A stretch of 64,000 nt of DNA from Escherichia coli. Its GTDB lineage: Bacteria > Pseudomonadota > Gammaproteobacteria > Enterobacterales > Enterobacteriaceae. A program made the position numbers and the translations under genes. Shown here in pieces: positions 2,221-63,608 of this stretch (the first letter of the stretch is position 1; each line of letters opens with the position of its first letter). The notes under the pieces were generated by a model that saw only the letters and a list, made by a program, of their open reading frames with translations, was not told the origin of the DNA and made no database searches. The stretch lies in NCBI RefSeq assembly GCF_016903815.1, contig NZ_CP069973.1. One strand, 5' to 3'.

Positions 2221-2792
2221 CGTAACTTACTCATTATTCTTACATTGACGACTAAGCTGCGGGCAAAGTAACGCCTTTCCGGGTGTGAACCGATGGCCTC
2301 GTGTCTAGTCGCGTCGCCAACCTCACGGTTATCGTCAGCTCAAAGAGGCGCAGAGTGTCGGTTGCCCGTTTTTCATGCGGAAAAACAGCGCAATTATCAA
2401 AGAAACAGACTGGGTATTACTCTCCAGAAATATTTCCATCTACCGGTAAGGACTGCAACCCGCAGCCCGCTAACTGCCTGAAAGATCAATACGTCTTACG
2501 CCATTGCTGCGTGGATGATCGGTCGGGCAAAATGGGTTATTCCGTAAAATTTCTTGTTTTAACAAGGATGGACACGGAAACGGCCTCATTATTCCACTGC
2601 AAGCCTTGTTATAGCAAGATGACTTTTACCATTTATCACCCGCTTACTCACAGTTTTTTCACTTCTTGCTGGTGATTGGTTTAATAACCATCAATAAAGT
2701 GATCACGTAGTGAAGTAATAAGGTGCAAAACTAAATATAAGCATAGAAAAATGAGTGGCGCGAATCCTGTTGACTAATTAGAATCGCCCACC
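2221..2792. promoter_or_regulatory. rne 5' leader and divergent rne/rluC promoter region
   Basis: 570-bp ORF-poor gap between divergent rne and rluC starts; a long structured autoregulatory rne leader is established for this locus. Confidence 0.5.
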
Positions 2793-3863: not shown

Positions 3864-4448
3864 CTATCCCATCAGCGGGTTTTTCCCTTCCCGACGTAAC
3901 ATCTGACACAGCGCGATTAGCGGTAAACCAACCAGCGTGTTAGGATCACGCCCCTCTAAACGCTCAAACAGCGTAATGCCAAATCCTTCACTCTTAAAGC
4001 TACCCGCGCAGTGCAGGGGATGCTCTTTACGCACGTAATTATCAATCTCCGCCTCGCTCAGGTGACGGAAATGGACGTCAAAAGGCTCCACTTCTGTTTG
4101 TAGATGCCCATTCGCCGAATTAAACAACGCCAGTCCAGTATAGAAGGTGACGATATTGCCGCTGGCTTTGCGTAATTGCAGACGGGCATTTTCTTCCGTT
4201 AACGGTTTACCGGTGATTTCGCCATCAAGAACACATACCTGGTCTGAACCAATAATTAAATGATCCGGATAACGTGACGCCAGAGATTGCGCTTTTTCTT
4301 GTGCCAGTCGAAGCACCAACTGTCGCGGTGATTCGTCGCTGCGTGGGGTTTCGTCGACCTCTGGTGCTGCACATTCAAAAGAGATTTGCAGTTTTTCCAG
4401 AAGAGCGCGACGCCAGGGCGAGGTGGAGGCTAAAATAAGTTTAGGCAT
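3864..4448 (-). CDS. yceF: Maf-like nucleotide pyrophosphatase YceF
   Basis: ORF 3864-4487; start placed at internal Met ([14 protein letters not shown]) giving 194 aa. Confidence 0.88.
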
Positions 4449-4634
4449 ATTTTTTTCCATCAGATATAGCGTATTGATGATAGCCATTTTAAACTATGCG
4501 CTTCGTTTTGCAGGTTGATGTTCGTTATCAGCACTGAACGAAAATAAAGCAGTAACCCGCAATGTGTGCGAATTATTGGCAAAAGGCAACCACAGGCTGC
4601 CTTTTTCTTTGACTCTATGACGTTACAAAGTTAA

Positions 4635-11081: not shown

Positions 11082-11794
11082 TTGTGCACAGAAAACCCCC
11101 AGCTAGGCTGGGGGTTCCGGAAAGCTTTCAGCTTTAAGCCAGTTATTAAAACCCCTTTTGATTTGTTAAAACACCTTGCGGTCTGGCAACTGCAAGTGTC
11201 AAACAAGAAATCAAAAGGGGGTCCCAATGGGGAACGAAAAGAGCTTAGCGCACACCCGATGGAACTGTAAATATCACATAGTTTTTGCGCCAAAATACCG
11301 AAGACAGGTGTTCTACAGAGAGAAGCGTAGAGCAATAGGCAGTATTTTGAGAAAGCTGTGTGAGTGGAAAAGTGTACGGATTCTGGAAGCTGAATGCTGT
11401 GCAGATCATATCCATATGCTTGTGGAGATCCCGCCCAAAATGAGCGTATCCGGCTTTATGGGATATCTGAAAGGGAAAAGCAGTCTGATGCTTTACGAGC
11501 AGTTTGGTGATTTGAAATTCAAATACAGGAACAGGGAGTTCTGGTGCAGAGGGTACTACGTCGATACGGTGGGTAAGAACACGGCGAAGATACAGGATTA
11601 CATAAAGCACCAGCTTGAAGAGGATAAAATGGGAGAGCAGTTATCGATTCCCTATCCGGGCAGCCCGTTTACGGGCCGTAAGTAACGAAGTTGGATGCAA
11701 ATGTCAGATCGTGTGCGCCTGTTAGGGCGCGGCTGGTAAGAGAGCCTTATAGGCGCATTTGAAAAACCTCCGGCTATGCCGGAGGATATTTATT
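11082..11794 (+). mobile_element. IS200-type insertion sequence, copy 1
   Basis: 713-bp block identical to 27980-28692; left-end hairpin cccccagctaggctggggg; single Y1 transposase gene; absent from this intergenic site in E. coli K-12 as I recall it. Confidence 0.9.
11227..11685 (+). CDS. tnpA: IS200/IS605-family Y1 (HUH) transposase TnpA
   Basis: 152 aa from internal Met with RBS aaaggggg; HUH motif HIHMLVEIPP; ORF-track 5' extension judged non-coding. Confidence 0.9.
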   Translation: MGNEKSLAHTRWNCKYHIVFAPKYRRQVFYREKRRAIGSILRKLCEWKSVRILEAECCADHIHMLVEIPPKMSVSGFMGYLKGKSSLMLYEQFGDLKFKYRNREFWCRGYYVDTVGKNTAKIQDYIKHQLEEDKMGEQLSIPYPGSPFTGRK

Positions 11795-27981: not shown

Positions 27982-28692
27982 GTGCACAGAAAACCCCCAG
28001 CTAGGCTGGGGGTTCCGGAAAGCTTTCAGCTTTAAGCCAGTTATTAAAACCCCTTTTGATTTGTTAAAACACCTTGCGGTCTGGCAACTGCAAGTGTCAA
28101 ACAAGAAATCAAAAGGGGGTCCCAATGGGGAACGAAAAGAGCTTAGCGCACACCCGATGGAACTGTAAATATCACATAGTTTTTGCGCCAAAATACCGAA
28201 GACAGGTGTTCTACAGAGAGAAGCGTAGAGCAATAGGCAGTATTTTGAGAAAGCTGTGTGAGTGGAAAAGTGTACGGATTCTGGAAGCTGAATGCTGTGC
28301 AGATCATATCCATATGCTTGTGGAGATCCCGCCCAAAATGAGCGTATCCGGCTTTATGGGATATCTGAAAGGGAAAAGCAGTCTGATGCTTTACGAGCAG
28401 TTTGGTGATTTGAAATTCAAATACAGGAACAGGGAGTTCTGGTGCAGAGGGTACTACGTCGATACGGTGGGTAAGAACACGGCGAAGATACAGGATTACA
28501 TAAAGCACCAGCTTGAAGAGGATAAAATGGGAGAGCAGTTATCGATTCCCTATCCGGGCAGCCCGTTTACGGGCCGTAAGTAACGAAGTTGGATGCAAAT
28601 GTCAGATCGTGTGCGCCTGTTAGGGCGCGGCTGGTAAGAGAGCCTTATAGGCGCATTTGAAAAACCTCCGGCTATGCCGGAGGATATTTATT
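27980..28692 (+). mobile_element. IS200-type insertion sequence, copy 2
   Basis: Identical to 11082-11794 by eye, same orientation. Confidence 0.9.
28125..28583 (+). CDS. tnpA: IS200/IS605-family Y1 transposase TnpA
   Basis: Same 152-aa protein as copy 1. Confidence 0.9.
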   Translation: MGNEKSLAHTRWNCKYHIVFAPKYRRQVFYREKRRAIGSILRKLCEWKSVRILEAECCADHIHMLVEIPPKMSVSGFMGYLKGKSSLMLYEQFGDLKFKYRNREFWCRGYYVDTVGKNTAKIQDYIKHQLEEDKMGEQLSIPYPGSPFTGRK

Positions 28693-47983: not shown

Positions 47984-48463
47984 AATGGCAGCCTCTTGGT
48001 TGAGTATTAATAACTCACCACCAAGGTTTTCCACGACCATAAGGGTGGTGAGGCGTACAGGGGTGGAAATACCGGTCAACCAAGAATCCGGCCAGCCTTG
48101 CAGCTGCCCTGCACGCCCCACCATAATCTGAATGTGGCTGTGCTTGACGCATAAAAAAACCGCCTGAGCGCGGTTATGCGCTTGATTGAATTCCGGGTTT
48201 CCACGCCCGGCACCCGTTTTATGAGGTGCAGGTGCACTATAATTCCACCCGTTCTGGTTTTCAATAGCTACATTCAACATTTTCTCTTACCTTTCATCAC
48301 CGAAGTGAACTTTGTTGATGCGGTGCCTGGTGCCTCCAGGTGACGTTAACCAGTTAACAATTAACGCCGGATACAGAGAATCCACCCATAACACTGTTTT
48401 TGGTTTTAACTGTTCCGCGTGCGCTTAGCCGCATTCACCGCATCACAAAATTCACTTTAAAAA

Positions 48464-48515
48464 GGGTGGCAGAGCAGTCACGGAGTAGAACTGATGCCAC
48501 CAAAGACTACACATG
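48464..48515 (-). ncRNA. dicF: DicF-like small RNA
   Basis: Minus-strand ggtggcatcagttctactccgtgactgctctgccaccc plus U-tail matches recalled DicF 3' two-thirds at about 34 of 38 nt; 5' end approximate. Confidence 0.6.
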
Positions 48516-56799: not shown

Positions 56800-56976
56800 A
56801 TAACTGCGGGTGCTTGAGGCTATCTGTCTCAGGCATGAACACCAAAAGGCAGATAGAGAAAAGCCCCAGTTAACATTACGCGTCCTGCAAGACGCTTAAC
56901 ATTAATCTGAGGCCATATCTATGCGACACATAGAGATTAGCCTCTTACGGACCGAAAGGTCAAGGAGAAGCAGGCT
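56800..56976. promoter_or_regulatory. hok mRNA leader with mok-like upstream ORF and expected antisense Sok region
   Basis: 19-codon upstream ORF (ATG 56921) whose TGA overlaps the hok ATG; hairpin gcgtcctgcaagacgc; Sok position inferred, not observed. Confidence 0.35.
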
Positions 56977-57132
56977 ATGAAGCAGCAAAAGGCGATGTTA
57001 ATCGCCCTGATCGTCATCTGTTTAACCGTCATAGTGACGGCACTGGTAACGAGGAAAGACCTCTGCGAGGTACGAATCCGAACCGGCCAGACGGAGGTCG
57101 CTGTCTTCACAGCTTACGAACCTGAGGAGTAA
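56977..57132 (+). CDS. hok: Hok/Gef-family type I toxin
   Basis: Hand translation MKQQKAMLIALIVICLTVIVTALVTRKDLCEVRIRTGQTEVAVFTAYEPEE (51 aa), essentially the HokD/RelF sequence as recalled. Confidence 0.85.
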   Translation: MKQQKAMLIALIVICLTVIVTALVTRKDLCEVRIRTGQTEVAVFTAYEPEE

Positions 57133-59005: not shown

Positions 59006-59374
59006 ATGACCGAACGCATAGAATTTGTTTTGCCTTACTCGCCGACGGTGAACACTTACTGGCGACGCCGTGGCAGCACATATTTTGTATCAAAAGCCGG
59101 GGAGCGTTATCGCCGGGCAGTGGCGCTTATTGTTCGCCAGCAGCGACTGAAATTAAGCCTGTCCGGACGGCTGGCAATAAAAATTATTGCAGAGCCACCG
59201 GATAAGCGTCGTCGTGACCTGGACAATATTCTGAAAGCACCACTGGATGCGCTGACGCACGCGGGGTTGTTAATGGACGATGAGCAGTTTGATGAAATCA
59301 ATATTGTACGTGGCCAGCCAGTATCTGGTGGACGGCTGGAGATAAGAATTACAGAGGTGGGTGTGCATGAATAA
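59006..59374 (+). CDS. rusA: Holliday-junction resolvase RusA
   Basis: 122 aa; PDKRRRDLDNILKAPLDALTHAG and GGRLEIRITEVG match RusA. Confidence 0.88.
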   Translation: MTERIEFVLPYSPTVNTYWRRRGSTYFVSKAGERYRRAVALIVRQQRLKLSLSGRLAIKIIAEPPDKRRRDLDNILKAPLDALTHAGLLMDDEQFDEINIVRGQPVSGGRLEIRITEVGVHE

Positions 59375-60056
59375 CCAGTATTTACAGTTTGTTCGTGAGC
59401 AACTCATGATTGCCACTGCAGATCTCAGTGGGTCGACAAAATGCCAGCTGGAAGCCTGGCAGGAAAATGCCCTGTTCGATACAGGGCGTTACAGACGCAA
59501 AAAAATTCGTTACCGCGATGAGGTAACCGGAAAAATGATCACGCGGGATAATCCCCCGATCCAGGGTAAACAATCACTGGCGAAAGGCTCATCAATTGCG
59601 CTGGTCAGTCCTGTTGAGTTTGCAACATCATCGTGGCGGCGTGCTGTTCTGGAACTGGAAGAACATCAGAAGGCGTGGTTGTTGTGGTGTTATGGCGGAA
59701 ACATTTGCTGGGAGCATCAGATCGCGATAACGCAGTGGGGGTGGAGTGAATTTAAAACTCAGTCCGGCTCCAGAAAAATTGCAGTGAAAACGCTGGAGCG
59801 TGTGAAGAAGTTGATCTGGCTGGCGGCACAGGATGTCAGAGGATGGGTTACCGGGTGTGAGGTCTACCAGAGACAGGAGCTTGCCAGACTGTGTGGAGTT
59901 AAGCCTGATAACTGGAGCCATAATTATGCGAACTACTGGCGTGAGATGTGCGATATTTTTAAGCGCCTCGATAGAGAATCCTTGATTTGCTCCGTGAAAA
60001 TAAGAGCGCAACAAAAAGCGACCTTTTCACGACGAGATATTGCAAAAGTCAATTAA
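59367..60056 (+). CDS. Putative late-gene antiterminator (Q-like)
   Basis: 229 aa, overlapping rusA stop, directly upstream of a tR'-like terminator and the lysis genes; assigned by position. Confidence 0.5.
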   Translation: MNNQYLQFVREQLMIATADLSGSTKCQLEAWQENALFDTGRYRRKKIRYRDEVTGKMITRDNPPIQGKQSLAKGSSIALVSPVEFATSSWRRAVLELEEHQKAWLLWCYGGNICWEHQIAITQWGWSEFKTQSGSRKIAVKTLERVKKLIWLAAQDVRGWVTGCEVYQRQELARLCGVKPDNWSHNYANYWREMCDIFKRLDRESLICSVKIRAQQKATFSRRDIAKVN

Positions 60057-60117
60057 ATCGCGTATGTTTCGTATAAATCTGATATTTTGCCGATTTTGTA
60101 CGTGATGGCAAAGTAAG

Positions 60118-60146
60118 AAAAAACCACCGCCAGGTGGTTTTTTTTA
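60118..60146 (+). terminator. tR'-like rho-independent terminator downstream of Q
   Basis: gaaaaaaaccaccgccaggtggttttttttat. Confidence 0.75.
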
Positions 60147-60268
60147 TGTCCGAAAATCGCGTCAGTACAGTAAACGCGCTGGTGGTTGCGAATACGGGTC
60201 TTTCAGCTTGCCGGCTTTTTCGACAAGAGTTATTGGTATGTCACGTTAACCGGAAAAGGGAAAAAGAC

Positions 60269-60466
60269 ATGCTAAAACAGCAGGATATGACAGAAGCCGC
60301 CAGAGTGGTGTTTAATGAATTAAGCGTTACCGACCCGGCGACAGTCAGGGAGATTGCACAGAATACTTACCTTTCACGCGAACGCTGCCAGTTAATACTG
60401 ACCCAGCTTGTTATGGCGGGTCTGGCAGACTATCAGTTTGGTTGTTACAGACACCTTCAGTCCTGA
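60269..60466 (+). CDS. Hypothetical small protein
   Basis: 65 aa from ATG 60269 (MLKQQDMTEAARVV...) with RBS aaggg; stop lies inside a terminator hairpin. Confidence 0.35.
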   Translation: MLKQQDMTEAARVVFNELSVTDPATVREIAQNTYLSRERCQLILTQLVMAGLADYQFGCYRHLQS

Positions 60467-60478
60467 AGGCTTTTTTAT
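60454..60478 (+). terminator. Rho-independent terminator
   Basis: ccttcagtcctgaaggcttttttattt. Confidence 0.6.
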
Positions 60479-60835
60479 TTGTGGTAAATGGGCGGCTGGT
60501 GGGTGTGGTGGTTGTTGCTTTCCCGTTGCTGAAAAAGAAAACGCCAGACTGTTAGCCGGGTATCAGTTAGCGGGAGAAATTTTTAAATACTTCACAATTC
60601 AGGCGGTTGACTGTTGTCTGGTTTGCGGGGAGTTTGTTAAAAGAAACTGGCATGGTGAATCCCCCTGTGCGGAGGGGCAATCAGCGAGTAGGTATATGGG
60701 ATAATCGCGGATTCAGGTGCTGGTACTGAATTCACCGGGAGGCACCCGGCACCATGCAATGGCACATAGCGCCACTCTCCAGCCCCTCTCCGGAGGGGCT
60801 GTTTATATTGATTTTGTCAGATGTGAGTAAACTCC

Positions 60836-61171
60836 TTATGGACTTTGTTGTTTTAGCCCATAAGGACATATTTGCAGAGTGCAACGATTATTAAAGCATT
60901 CATTCAATACGTTATCTGTATTTGTAGGGCATTCCTGGCTGTTTTTGATTAAATTCCAGAATGTTTTATTGAATGGTACTACGTTGTAAATGGTTACAGG
61001 TAGCACTTTGTTATTGAGCATGATACCTGTGTGAGTCAGTGTAAATATACTTTCAGGAGGTAAGAAAGCATCCGATTGATACCAGATTATTAATTTTATT
61101 TTACTCCATATGACTGAAAAAGATATTCCGCATGATGGCTGGATAACTGTATCAATCACAATCCACTTCAT
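60836..61171 (-). CDS. Hypothetical protein in AT-rich island (antisense to the late operon)
   Basis: 111-aa ORF open despite AT-rich (stop-codon-prone) sequence; four Cys in the C-terminal third; AT-rich upstream region. Confidence 0.4.
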
Positions 61172-61927: not shown

Positions 61928-62143
61928 ATGTACCAGATGGAAAAAATCACAACAGGTGTGTCATACACCACGTCAGCGGTGGGAACGGGCTACTGGTTCC
62001 TGCAGTTGCTGGACAGGGTTTCCCCGTCTCAGTGGGCGGCAATAGGCGTGCTGGGGAGTCTGCTGTTTGGGCTGCTGACATATCTGACTAACCTGTATTT
62101 CAAAATCAAAGAGGACCGGCGTAAGGCGGCGCGGGGAGAGTAA
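61928..62143 (+). CDS. S: Class II pinholin, phage 21 S-type
   Basis: [51 protein letters not shown] closely matches recalled S21; dual start motif M-Y-Q-M at 61928/61937. Confidence 0.88.
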
Positions 62144-62147
62144 AGTG

Positions 62148-63038
62148 ATGAATAAAAAATATGAACTGGTTGTTAAGGGGATAAATAATTACGGGGATAA
62201 GGTTACTGTTACTGTGAAGTCGGAAGGTGACGGGCAAGCGTCGCTGTTGTTGCCAGATGTGGCGATTAGTCTTGACCGTACTGAAGGTGCCACGCTGGAG
62301 TTTTACGAAGCTGAGGCGAAAAAGCAGGCGAAGCAGTTTTTCATGGATGTTGCTGCCGGGTTATGTGAATGGAACGAACCGTTGCCGGAAAAGCGCCCCG
62401 TAATTTTAGAGGCGCAGGATGTGTTGATAACCTACAAAGGAAAGCTACCGGGAAGAATTACTTGTTCTCTGAAGATGCCGCCGTCAACACTGCGGTCAGA
62501 AAAAGATGATGTTGAATCACGTATTGAAAAACTGGAGAGCTACGTCGTTGAGCTGAATAAGAAATGGTCGATATTGGTGCCTTCTGGCGATGAAAAGCAG
62601 TTTGCTGCGTTTGACGATTATTGTCGGAAAGTGATGAGCAGAAATCTCGCAGAGTGTTTCAGTATTCATAATGATAATTTCAGTGACCCGGAATGGGAGT
62701 GTAACCGGCCATCCTTTGTTGTATCCGGTGATGCTGGGAAAATAACCATCTCAGAAAATGGGAAAGTAACACCTCCATCGCACCAGCACAGTGAGGAGCT
62801 CATTGAATTTGCCATTGATTACCTGAAGAACAATAAAAAGCAGGGGCTGATGAAGCGCGTTGGCCGTTGCATGGGATATCTTCAGGTAGCCGCTGAGATT
62901 GAAGCGCTGGCCAGTGGTGCTGATAAGGATGCAATTGTGCGGGAGGCTCTTCTTCGTGATTTTAATACTCCACCCTTTAAAAAAGTGCCGGCTTACTGGC
63001 TTCATCCGGGGCTGACTTATCTTAAAGTGCGTATTTAG
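62148..63038 (+). CDS. Hypothetical 296-aa protein inserted between holin and endolysin
   Basis: ATG 62148 five nt after the holin stop with RBS ggggagag; no recognised catalytic motif. Confidence 0.6.
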   Translation: MNKKYELVVKGINNYGDKVTVTVKSEGDGQASLLLPDVAISLDRTEGATLEFYEAEAKKQAKQFFMDVAAGLCEWNEPLPEKRPVILEAQDVLITYKGKLPGRITCSLKMPPSTLRSEKDDVESRIEKLESYVVELNKKWSILVPSGDEKQFAAFDDYCRKVMSRNLAECFSIHNDNFSDPEWECNRPSFVVSGDAGKITISENGKVTPPSHQHSEELIEFAIDYLKNNKKQGLMKRVGRCMGYLQVAAEIEALASGADKDAIVREALLRDFNTPPFKKVPAYWLHPGLTYLKVRI

Positions 63039-63074
63039 TGGGCCAGGGACAGCGGCTGAATATTTAATATATCC

Positions 63075-63608
63075 ATGAACACCAAAATCAAATACGGCCT
63101 GTCGGCTGCCGTTCTGGCGCTGATTGCCGCTGGTGCGCCTGCGCCTGACATTCTCGACCAGTTTCTGGATGAAAAGGAAGGCAACCACACCACGGCATAC
63201 CGTGATGGTGCAGGTATCTGGACCATCTGCCGTGGTGCCATCATGGTGGATGGCAAACCTGTCGTTCCGGGCATGAAGTTGTCGAAGGAAAAATGCGACC
63301 AGGTTAACGCCATTGAGCGTGATAAAGCGCTGGCGTGGGTGGAGAAAAACATCAGAGTGCCGCTGACCGAACCCCAGAAAGCGGGGATCGCGTCATTCTG
63401 TCCGTACAACATTGGTCCCGGTAAGTGTTTCCCGTCGACGTTTTACAGACGAATTAATGCTGGTGATCGAAAAGGTGCCTGCGAAGCGATTCGCTGGTGG
63501 ATTAAGGACGGTGGCAGAGACTGCCGTATTCGTTCAAACAACTGTTACGGTCAGGTATCCCGTCGTGACCAGGAGAGCGCGCTGGCGTGCTGGGGTATCG
63601 ACAGATAA
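63075..63608 (+). CDS. R: SAR endolysin (T4-type lysozyme, GH24)
   Basis: Gly/Ala-rich N-terminal SAR segment; catalytic E-x8-D-x5-T (EGNHTTAYRDGAGIWT). Confidence 0.88.
   Translation: MNTKIKYGLSAAVLALIAAGAPAPDILDQFLDEKEGNHTTAYRDGAGIWTICRGAIMVDGKPVVPGMKLSKEKCDQVNAIERDKALAWVEKNIRVPLTEPQKAGIASFCPYNIGPGKCFPSTFYRRINAGDRKGACEAIRWWIKDGGRDCRIRSNNCYGQVSRRDQESALACWGIDR

Follow-up and report, generated by a model that had tools for sequence, protein, structure and literature searches.

A Probable Late-Gene Control Module of the Phage 82 Type in a Lambdoid Prophage of Escherichia coli

The window analyzed here, a stretch of 64,000 nucleotides from Escherichia coli (NCBI RefSeq assembly GCF_016903815.1, contig NZ_CP069973.1), very probably carries, within a lambdoid prophage, a module for late-gene control of the phage 82 type, with its activities assigned by analogy to the studied phage. 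Behind a gene for a Q antiterminator follow a late promoter, a promoter-proximal pause element, an intrinsic terminator and, farther downstream, the lysis genes; the protein family, the presence and conservation of each cis element, and the order of the genes can be read directly from the DNA. The region is an ordinary example of a well-studied kind of late switch, and the value of its description lies mainly in annotation: RefSeq annotation of this switch covers only the Q gene, to which coordinates for the late promoter, the pause site, and the first terminator are added here for a common E. coli prophage type.

The Prophage and Its Q Gene

An rne 5′ UTR element (2245–2581, minus strand) and SraB (4442–4610, plus strand) show that the window opens with E. 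coli chromosomal DNA. Two copies of the STnc490 RNA family, which are found 16.9 kb apart at 11094–11217 and 27992–28115 on the plus strand (146 bits each), suggest a repeated element in this chromosomal part. The sizes and the order of the open reading frames (ORFs) suggest that the prophage starts near 43 kb and extends past the window end. It presents an integrase region, DicF/C4 immunity RNAs, replication genes, rusA, Q, and lysis genes in this order, which corresponds to the lambdoid map position of a Q gene. C4 antisense RNA, isrK, and DicF are located together at 48041–48515 (minus strand), and a sok antitoxin RNA (56808–56979, plus strand) adjoins a 51-aa hok-type ORF (56977–57132).

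The Q gene occupies positions 59367–60056 of the plus strand and encodes 229 amino acids. Its upstream neighbors are a DUF968/YdfU-like gene and rusA, the 3′ end of which is overlapped by the start of Q. Translation is placed at the ATG at 59367, in agreement with RefSeq, and not at the GTG at 59361; the TAA stop codon lies at 60054–60056. In a Pfam profile search, the only match of the protein was to PF06323 (276.4 bits against a cut-off of 25; E 2.2e-82), with residues 6–222 aligned to positions 1–217 of the 220 profile positions, i.e., over the full length, and there was no match to PF03589, the family of lambda Q. The protein aligns with phage 82 Q from end to end and free of gaps, with 152 of 229 residues identical (66%, E 1e-114). 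Divergence between the two proteins is greatest in the C-terminal third, and DNA identity to phage 82 is confined to the first two thirds of the gene. RefSeq labels the gene ‘bacteriophage antitermination protein Q’ in identical genomes, meaning those with 100% identity over 59300–60900.

PF06323 represents the Q82 family, one of three unrelated families of Q proteins (PMC9388147; PMC7171158), and the only one that still lacks a structure-based mechanism (PMC9388147). A sequence search of the PDB found no solved relative of the window Q. In the preliminary description, the gene had been assigned as Q-like by its position alone, and a match to a non-antiterminator family would have spoken against it; homology now bears the assignment out, the family found being that of an antiterminator. 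Judged by its sequence, the gene is thus a true Q antiterminator gene of the phage 82 family, and the predicted function of its product is to render RNA polymerase resistant to terminators.

The Late Promoter

In a consensus promoter scan, the interval from Q to the terminator yielded no promoter on the plus strand, and the number of promoter-like matches in the region as a whole was at chance level (10 found, 10.3 expected). Relatives of the region were therefore compared. The phage 82 GenBank record, X92588, ends at the Q stop codon and hence gives no pR′, and no usable literal sequence of 82 pR′ was found in papers or supplements; for this reason, phage 82 is represented by PhiR47_2, with 97% identity between its Q and Q82, and by the description of 82 pR′ given in the text of a published study (PMC5001585).

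The comparison reveals a composite motif, TTGCAA-N17-YAYRTT-N11-TGATAT, which occurs once in the 64-kb window and in none of 100 shuffled versions. The same motif is present once per locus, always equally far from the Q stop codon, in all 85 Q82-family loci for which downstream sequence is available: five annotated phages and 80 viral contigs that encode relatives of the window Q, including phages of Klebsiella and Enterobacter. Three other loci lack it, namely a record ending at the Q stop codon, a locus cut at the end of Q, and a phage with a different Q.

Within this motif, TTGCAA at 60040–60045 (plus strand, as are all elements of the module) is the predicted −35 hexamer of the late promoter, i.e., the equivalent of pR′, being homologous to that of phage 82. 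None of the 85 loci deviates from this hexamer or from its distance to the Q stop codon. The −35 hexamer sits within the last codons of Q (ATT GCA AAA), and the Q stop codon falls into the 17-bp spacer that follows (60046–60062). The putative −10 hexamer, TATGTT, at 60063–60068, conforms to a conserved column pattern, [TC]A[TC][AG]TT; across the 45 distinct versions of the 150 nt from the −35 hexamer onward, the A at its position 2 and the T at its position 6 are invariant. Transcription would start 7 nt past the −10 hexamer with the AAA at 60075–60077 (+1 to +3), which is identical in PhiR47_2 and agrees with the AAA with which 82 pR′ begins (PMC5001585).

With 8 of 12 positions agreeing with the consensus, the hexamers TTGCAA-17-TATGTT are weak, and the promoter was missed by the scanner because this score lies below its threshold. 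The preliminary description had likewise left a promoter upstream of the terminator uncalled, in part because the −35 hexamer lies upstream of the coordinate at which that description began, inside the Q coding sequence. Homology now identifies a candidate at the same position in every related locus: the late promoter can be called through comparison with relatives, not through its consensus score.

The Q-binding element of 82 pR′ is located between the −35 and −10 hexamers, within −31 to +30 (PMC4914094), which makes the spacer at 60046–60062 the putative location of such an element in the window. This spacer is in part conserved and in part unlike that of phage 82, with differences at several positions. 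Because both the spacer and the C-terminal third of Q have diverged, the specificity of the window Q may differ from that of phage 82 Q.

The Pause Element

Reading from the A at 60075, the window continues as AAATCTGATATTTTGCC GATTTTGTA, with AAA at +1 to +3, TG at +6/+7, TATTTT at +9 to +14, GCC at +15 to +17, and T at +25. In phage 82, pR′ transcripts have GCC at +15 to +17, the pause element is an extended −10 sequence that comes nearer to TATAAT than that of lambda, and the major pauses occur at +25/+26, with a U at +25 (PMC5001585). The stretch 60075–60100 fits all features stated for 82 pR′ in that study, and sequence comparison 3′ of Q shows it to be identical to PhiR47_2 at +1 to +17 and at +24 to +26. 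The extended −10-like TGaTATTTT (+6 to +14) and the adjacent GCC, together at 60080–60091, are accordingly listed as a putative sigma70-dependent pause element, in which TGATAT is invariant in the 85 loci, and the pause positions would be the T at 60099 (+25) and the A at 60100 (+26).

This conservation bears on another account of the region, in which the hairpin downstream of Q does no more than end the delayed-early Q transcript, and no late promoter exists between Q and the terminator. The weak hexamers, missed by the consensus scan, and the chance-level number of promoter-like matches would be expected on such an account. However, the −35 and −10 hexamers, the AAA start, and the pause element are positionally conserved in 85 of 85 loci and match the studied pR′ of phage 82, and a plain terminator needs no conserved extended −10-like element 40 nt upstream, so that an exclusive role at the gene end appears very improbable. 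The two roles of the hairpin, at the end of the Q transcript and in the late switch, are compatible and not exclusive.

The late switch thus remains the preferred reading, and the 45 natural variants delimit its invariant positions: TTGCAA of the −35 hexamer, A2 and T6 of the −10 hexamer, and TGATAT of the pause element. This variant set could guide work on the mechanism of the Q82 family with respect to promoter, pause element, and terminator.

The Terminator and the Leader RNA

An intrinsic terminator, the predicted equivalent of tR′ or t82, was located by scan and by folding at 60118–60145, with the sequence AAAAAACCACC-GCCA-GGTGGTTTTTTTT. Its core stem, CCACC/GGTGG, consists of 5 bp of G+C (60124–60128 and 60133–60137) around a 4-nt loop and can be extended by 6 A-U pairs; 8 T follow the stem at 60138–60145, and the base at 60146 is an A. 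The predicted 72-nt transcript from 60075 to 60146 folds into two hairpins (−27 kcal/mol, z = −5.7), and none of 200 shuffled sequences was as stable. A perfect intrinsic terminator with a long U-tract, as proposed in the preliminary description, is therefore well founded, and its placement about 60 bp past the Q stop codon was approximately right, the core stem beginning 68 nt past the TAA; of the extent given there, the hairpin and the T-run stand, while the T-run ends at 60145 and not at 60146.

A hairpin with a T-run is found at the equivalent place in 42 of the 45 distinct variants at a cut-off of −7 kcal/mol, and in the other three, single substitutions weaken the hairpin to below this cut-off. 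The stems themselves differ among relatives (CCACC, CUGCC, CCCGC, GCCCGAGG, GCCUCGCC, and GCCACUGG). Structure is conserved where sequence is not, and the terminator is selected as a structure.

The predicted product of termination is an RNA of about 70 nt. Most leaders in related loci measure 69–79 nt; variants without the first hairpin have shorter ones of 53–55 nt, and a Klebsiella phage has one of 98 nt. The first hairpin of the window leader (UAUUUUGCC ... GGCAAAGUA, 60083–60115) is part of the minimum-free-energy fold; its 5′ arm overlaps the pause element and the GCC. Taken alone, it scores z = −2.7 in the lineage of the window, and equivalent hairpins reach −3.2 and −3.9 in two lineages. 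Further lineages, the phage 82 type among them, give −1.3, +0.1, −0.2, and −1.0. In view of these mixed scores and of the hairpin-less variants with leaders of ~53–55 nt, a conserved RNA structure is not claimed for this hairpin.

No Rfam family reached its threshold in a scan of 60057–60146. Three matches were discarded as falling far short of their gathering scores and being driven by the terminator hairpin: Phe_leader (28 bits, gathering score 55); isrK (19 bits, gathering score 50), where the leader has little beyond the terminator in common with the real isrK copy; and, on the minus strand, STnc370 (35.9 bits, gathering score 54). The ATG at 60146 was rejected as an ORF start, since relatives show frame-breaking indels and an in-frame stop, and the RefSeq start at 60269 was kept.

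Besides its part in the switch, the terminated RNA of ~70 nt might have a second role in lysogens, as a small RNA with regulatory effects in trans. The precedent is StxS, which derives from the pR′-tR′ region of a Shiga-toxin phage and regulates host genes (PMC7547250). The window leader has a stable fold of two hairpins, and it combines an A-rich linker (AGUAAGAAAAAA) with an 8-U tail. Linker and tail resemble Hfq-binding features. Against a role in trans stand the lack of an Rfam family at threshold over 60057–60146 and the pattern of variation: linker and terminator sequences vary freely and the first hairpin is absent in some relatives, which argues against a conserved seed. An additional StxS-like function is unlikely, and quite unlikely in the specific form of a constitutive pR′ leader (5′ hairpin, A-rich linker, 8-U terminator) that works as an Hfq-dependent trans-acting small RNA in lysogens. 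If such a function were real, it would constitute a widespread regulatory input from prophage to host, because related leaders occur in 1,128 of 5,426 complete E. coli genomes.

The scanner listed the terminator on both strands, which raises the question of whether its main function lies on the minus strand, either as a bidirectional terminator or as part of a unit that acts antisense to Q in the manner of lambda paQ. An A-run flanks the hairpin, such that the minus strand reads as the stem followed by TTTTTT; a promoter-like TTGCCA-16-CAAAAT lies inside the leader (60111 to 60084, minus strand) and is aimed antisense into Q; and the STnc370-like match falls on this strand. However, the count of promoter-like matches equals chance, the Rfam match is sub-threshold and driven by the hairpin, and many relatives lack the A-run and have terminators with a downstream T-run only. 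Moreover, other structures lie between the element and the nearest minus-strand gene (60836–61171). A mainly minus-strand function is accordingly hardly credible, and the hairpin is treated here as the plus-strand terminator of the late leader.

The Region Downstream of the Terminator

From 60120, i.e., from within the terminator onward, the window is 90–93% identical to Stx2 phages, in which the same module of terminator and ORF follows a different Q of 127 aa with its own leader. This match, beginning at the terminator behind a different Q, implies that Q, promoter, and pause site travel as one unit, with the joint at the terminator. The terminator hence marks a mosaic joint between a Q-specific module and a downstream module that is common to Stx2 phages with an unrelated Q; the joint at the hairpin is represented by positions 60120–60806 of the window and 2433–2680 of a fetched locus (L087).

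The first gene past the terminator is a 65-aa ORF (60269–60466, plus strand), which Stx2 phages keep as a ‘hypothetical protein’ and which shows a weak winged-helix (TrmB) match (E 9e-4) that falls short of the Pfam cut-off. A terminator-like hairpin at 60454–60469 overlaps its stop codon. Further terminator-like sites 3′ of the first terminator are thus present at 60454, and also at 60780 and 61861. A strong match to the prophage small RNA family STnc100 (60621–60810, plus strand; 132 bits, gathering score 47), with its own terminator at 60780–60801, falls into the late leader, past the first terminator and upstream of the holin gene; STnc100 is related to PasD small RNAs (2026 preprint). On the opposite strand, a gene of 111 aa (60836–61171) lies inside the late operon. 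It has no Pfam match, is named anti-adapter protein IraM by RefSeq in identical genomes, and, lying between Q and the lysis genes, has the appearance of host-directed cargo.

The late (lysis) genes at 61928–63608 (plus strand) comprise a holin (PF04971), a DUF1327/YdfR-like ORF (PF07041), and a lysozyme (PF00959), as assigned by Pfam and RefSeq. Two late-region genes, DUF1737 and YdfR-family, are flagged as incomplete by RefSeq (window 62145–63038, plus strand; locus L088, 6133–7184), and the DUF1327 match of the 297-aa ORF in 62145–63038 is limited to the first ~100 residues. The late region may have been rearranged or may be in decay, and because of the two genes flagged as incomplete, the switch may no longer give productive lysis in this strain.

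Proposed Mechanism

Promoter activity, pausing, Q loading, and read-through are inferred from work on phage 82, and by this analogy the module could operate as follows. Host sigma70 RNA polymerase would start at 60075, from a constitutive promoter that overlaps the 3′ end of Q, and sigma70 would then re-bind to the −10-like TGaTATTTT (+6 to +14), thereby holding the polymerase at about +25/+26. In the absence of Q, the enzyme would escape and stop at the terminator at 60118–60145, releasing the RNA of ~70 nt. Once Q (59367–60056) has accumulated, it might bind the DNA of the promoter spacer and join the paused polymerase. Q together with NusA would make the polymerase resistant to the first terminator as well as to the sites at 60454, 60780, and 61861, and the resulting read-through would allow transcription of the holin and lysozyme genes at 61.9–63.6 kb.

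Comparison With Known Late Switches

Promoters of the pR′ type are constitutive, and short terminated RNAs have been reported for the phages lambda, 21, phi80, 82, and P22 (PMC7547250). StxS offers a parallel in that it is a short RNA of lysogens, made constitutively between a Q-controlled late promoter and the first terminator, as predicted for the window leader. StxS differs in being cut by RNase E from a 258-nt leader to 74 nt, whereas the whole leader is only ~70 nt long here, and in having demonstrated targets, rpoS and stx1 (PMC7547250); no sequence relation between StxS and the window leader was detected.

The preliminary description had compared the region with the pR′-tR′ architecture of lambda. 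The logic is indeed the same: a constitutive promoter just past Q, a sigma70-dependent promoter-proximal pause, a terminator that is read through by Q-modified polymerase, and late genes beyond it. However, lambda Q belongs to the unrelated family PF03589, the lambda pause occurs at +16/+17, and the lambda leader (6S RNA) is 194 nt long. In lambda, the late promoter does not overlap Q codons.

The closest model is instead phage 82 pR′, with a leader of ~70 nt in the window and a pause at +25. The Q proteins are of the same family (PF06323, 66% identity), and, with PhiR47_2 as a proxy for phage 82, the promoters share the −35 hexamer TTGCAA, the spacer length of 17 bp, identical sequence from +1 to +17 (AAA, TGaTATTTT, GCC), and the U at +25. 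In both, a short leader (~70 nt in the window, ~78 nt in the phage-82-like PhiR47_2) ends in an intrinsic terminator, and lysis genes lie downstream. The window differs from phage 82 in its −10 hexamer (TATGTT versus TATATT), at several positions of the spacer, the presumed Q-binding element, and in the diverged C-terminal third of Q. The terminator hairpins are unrelated in sequence, CCACC/GGTGG in the window versus AAGCCCGAGG/CCTTGGGCTT, and the region behind the terminator stems here from another mosaic module, the one common to Stx2 phages.
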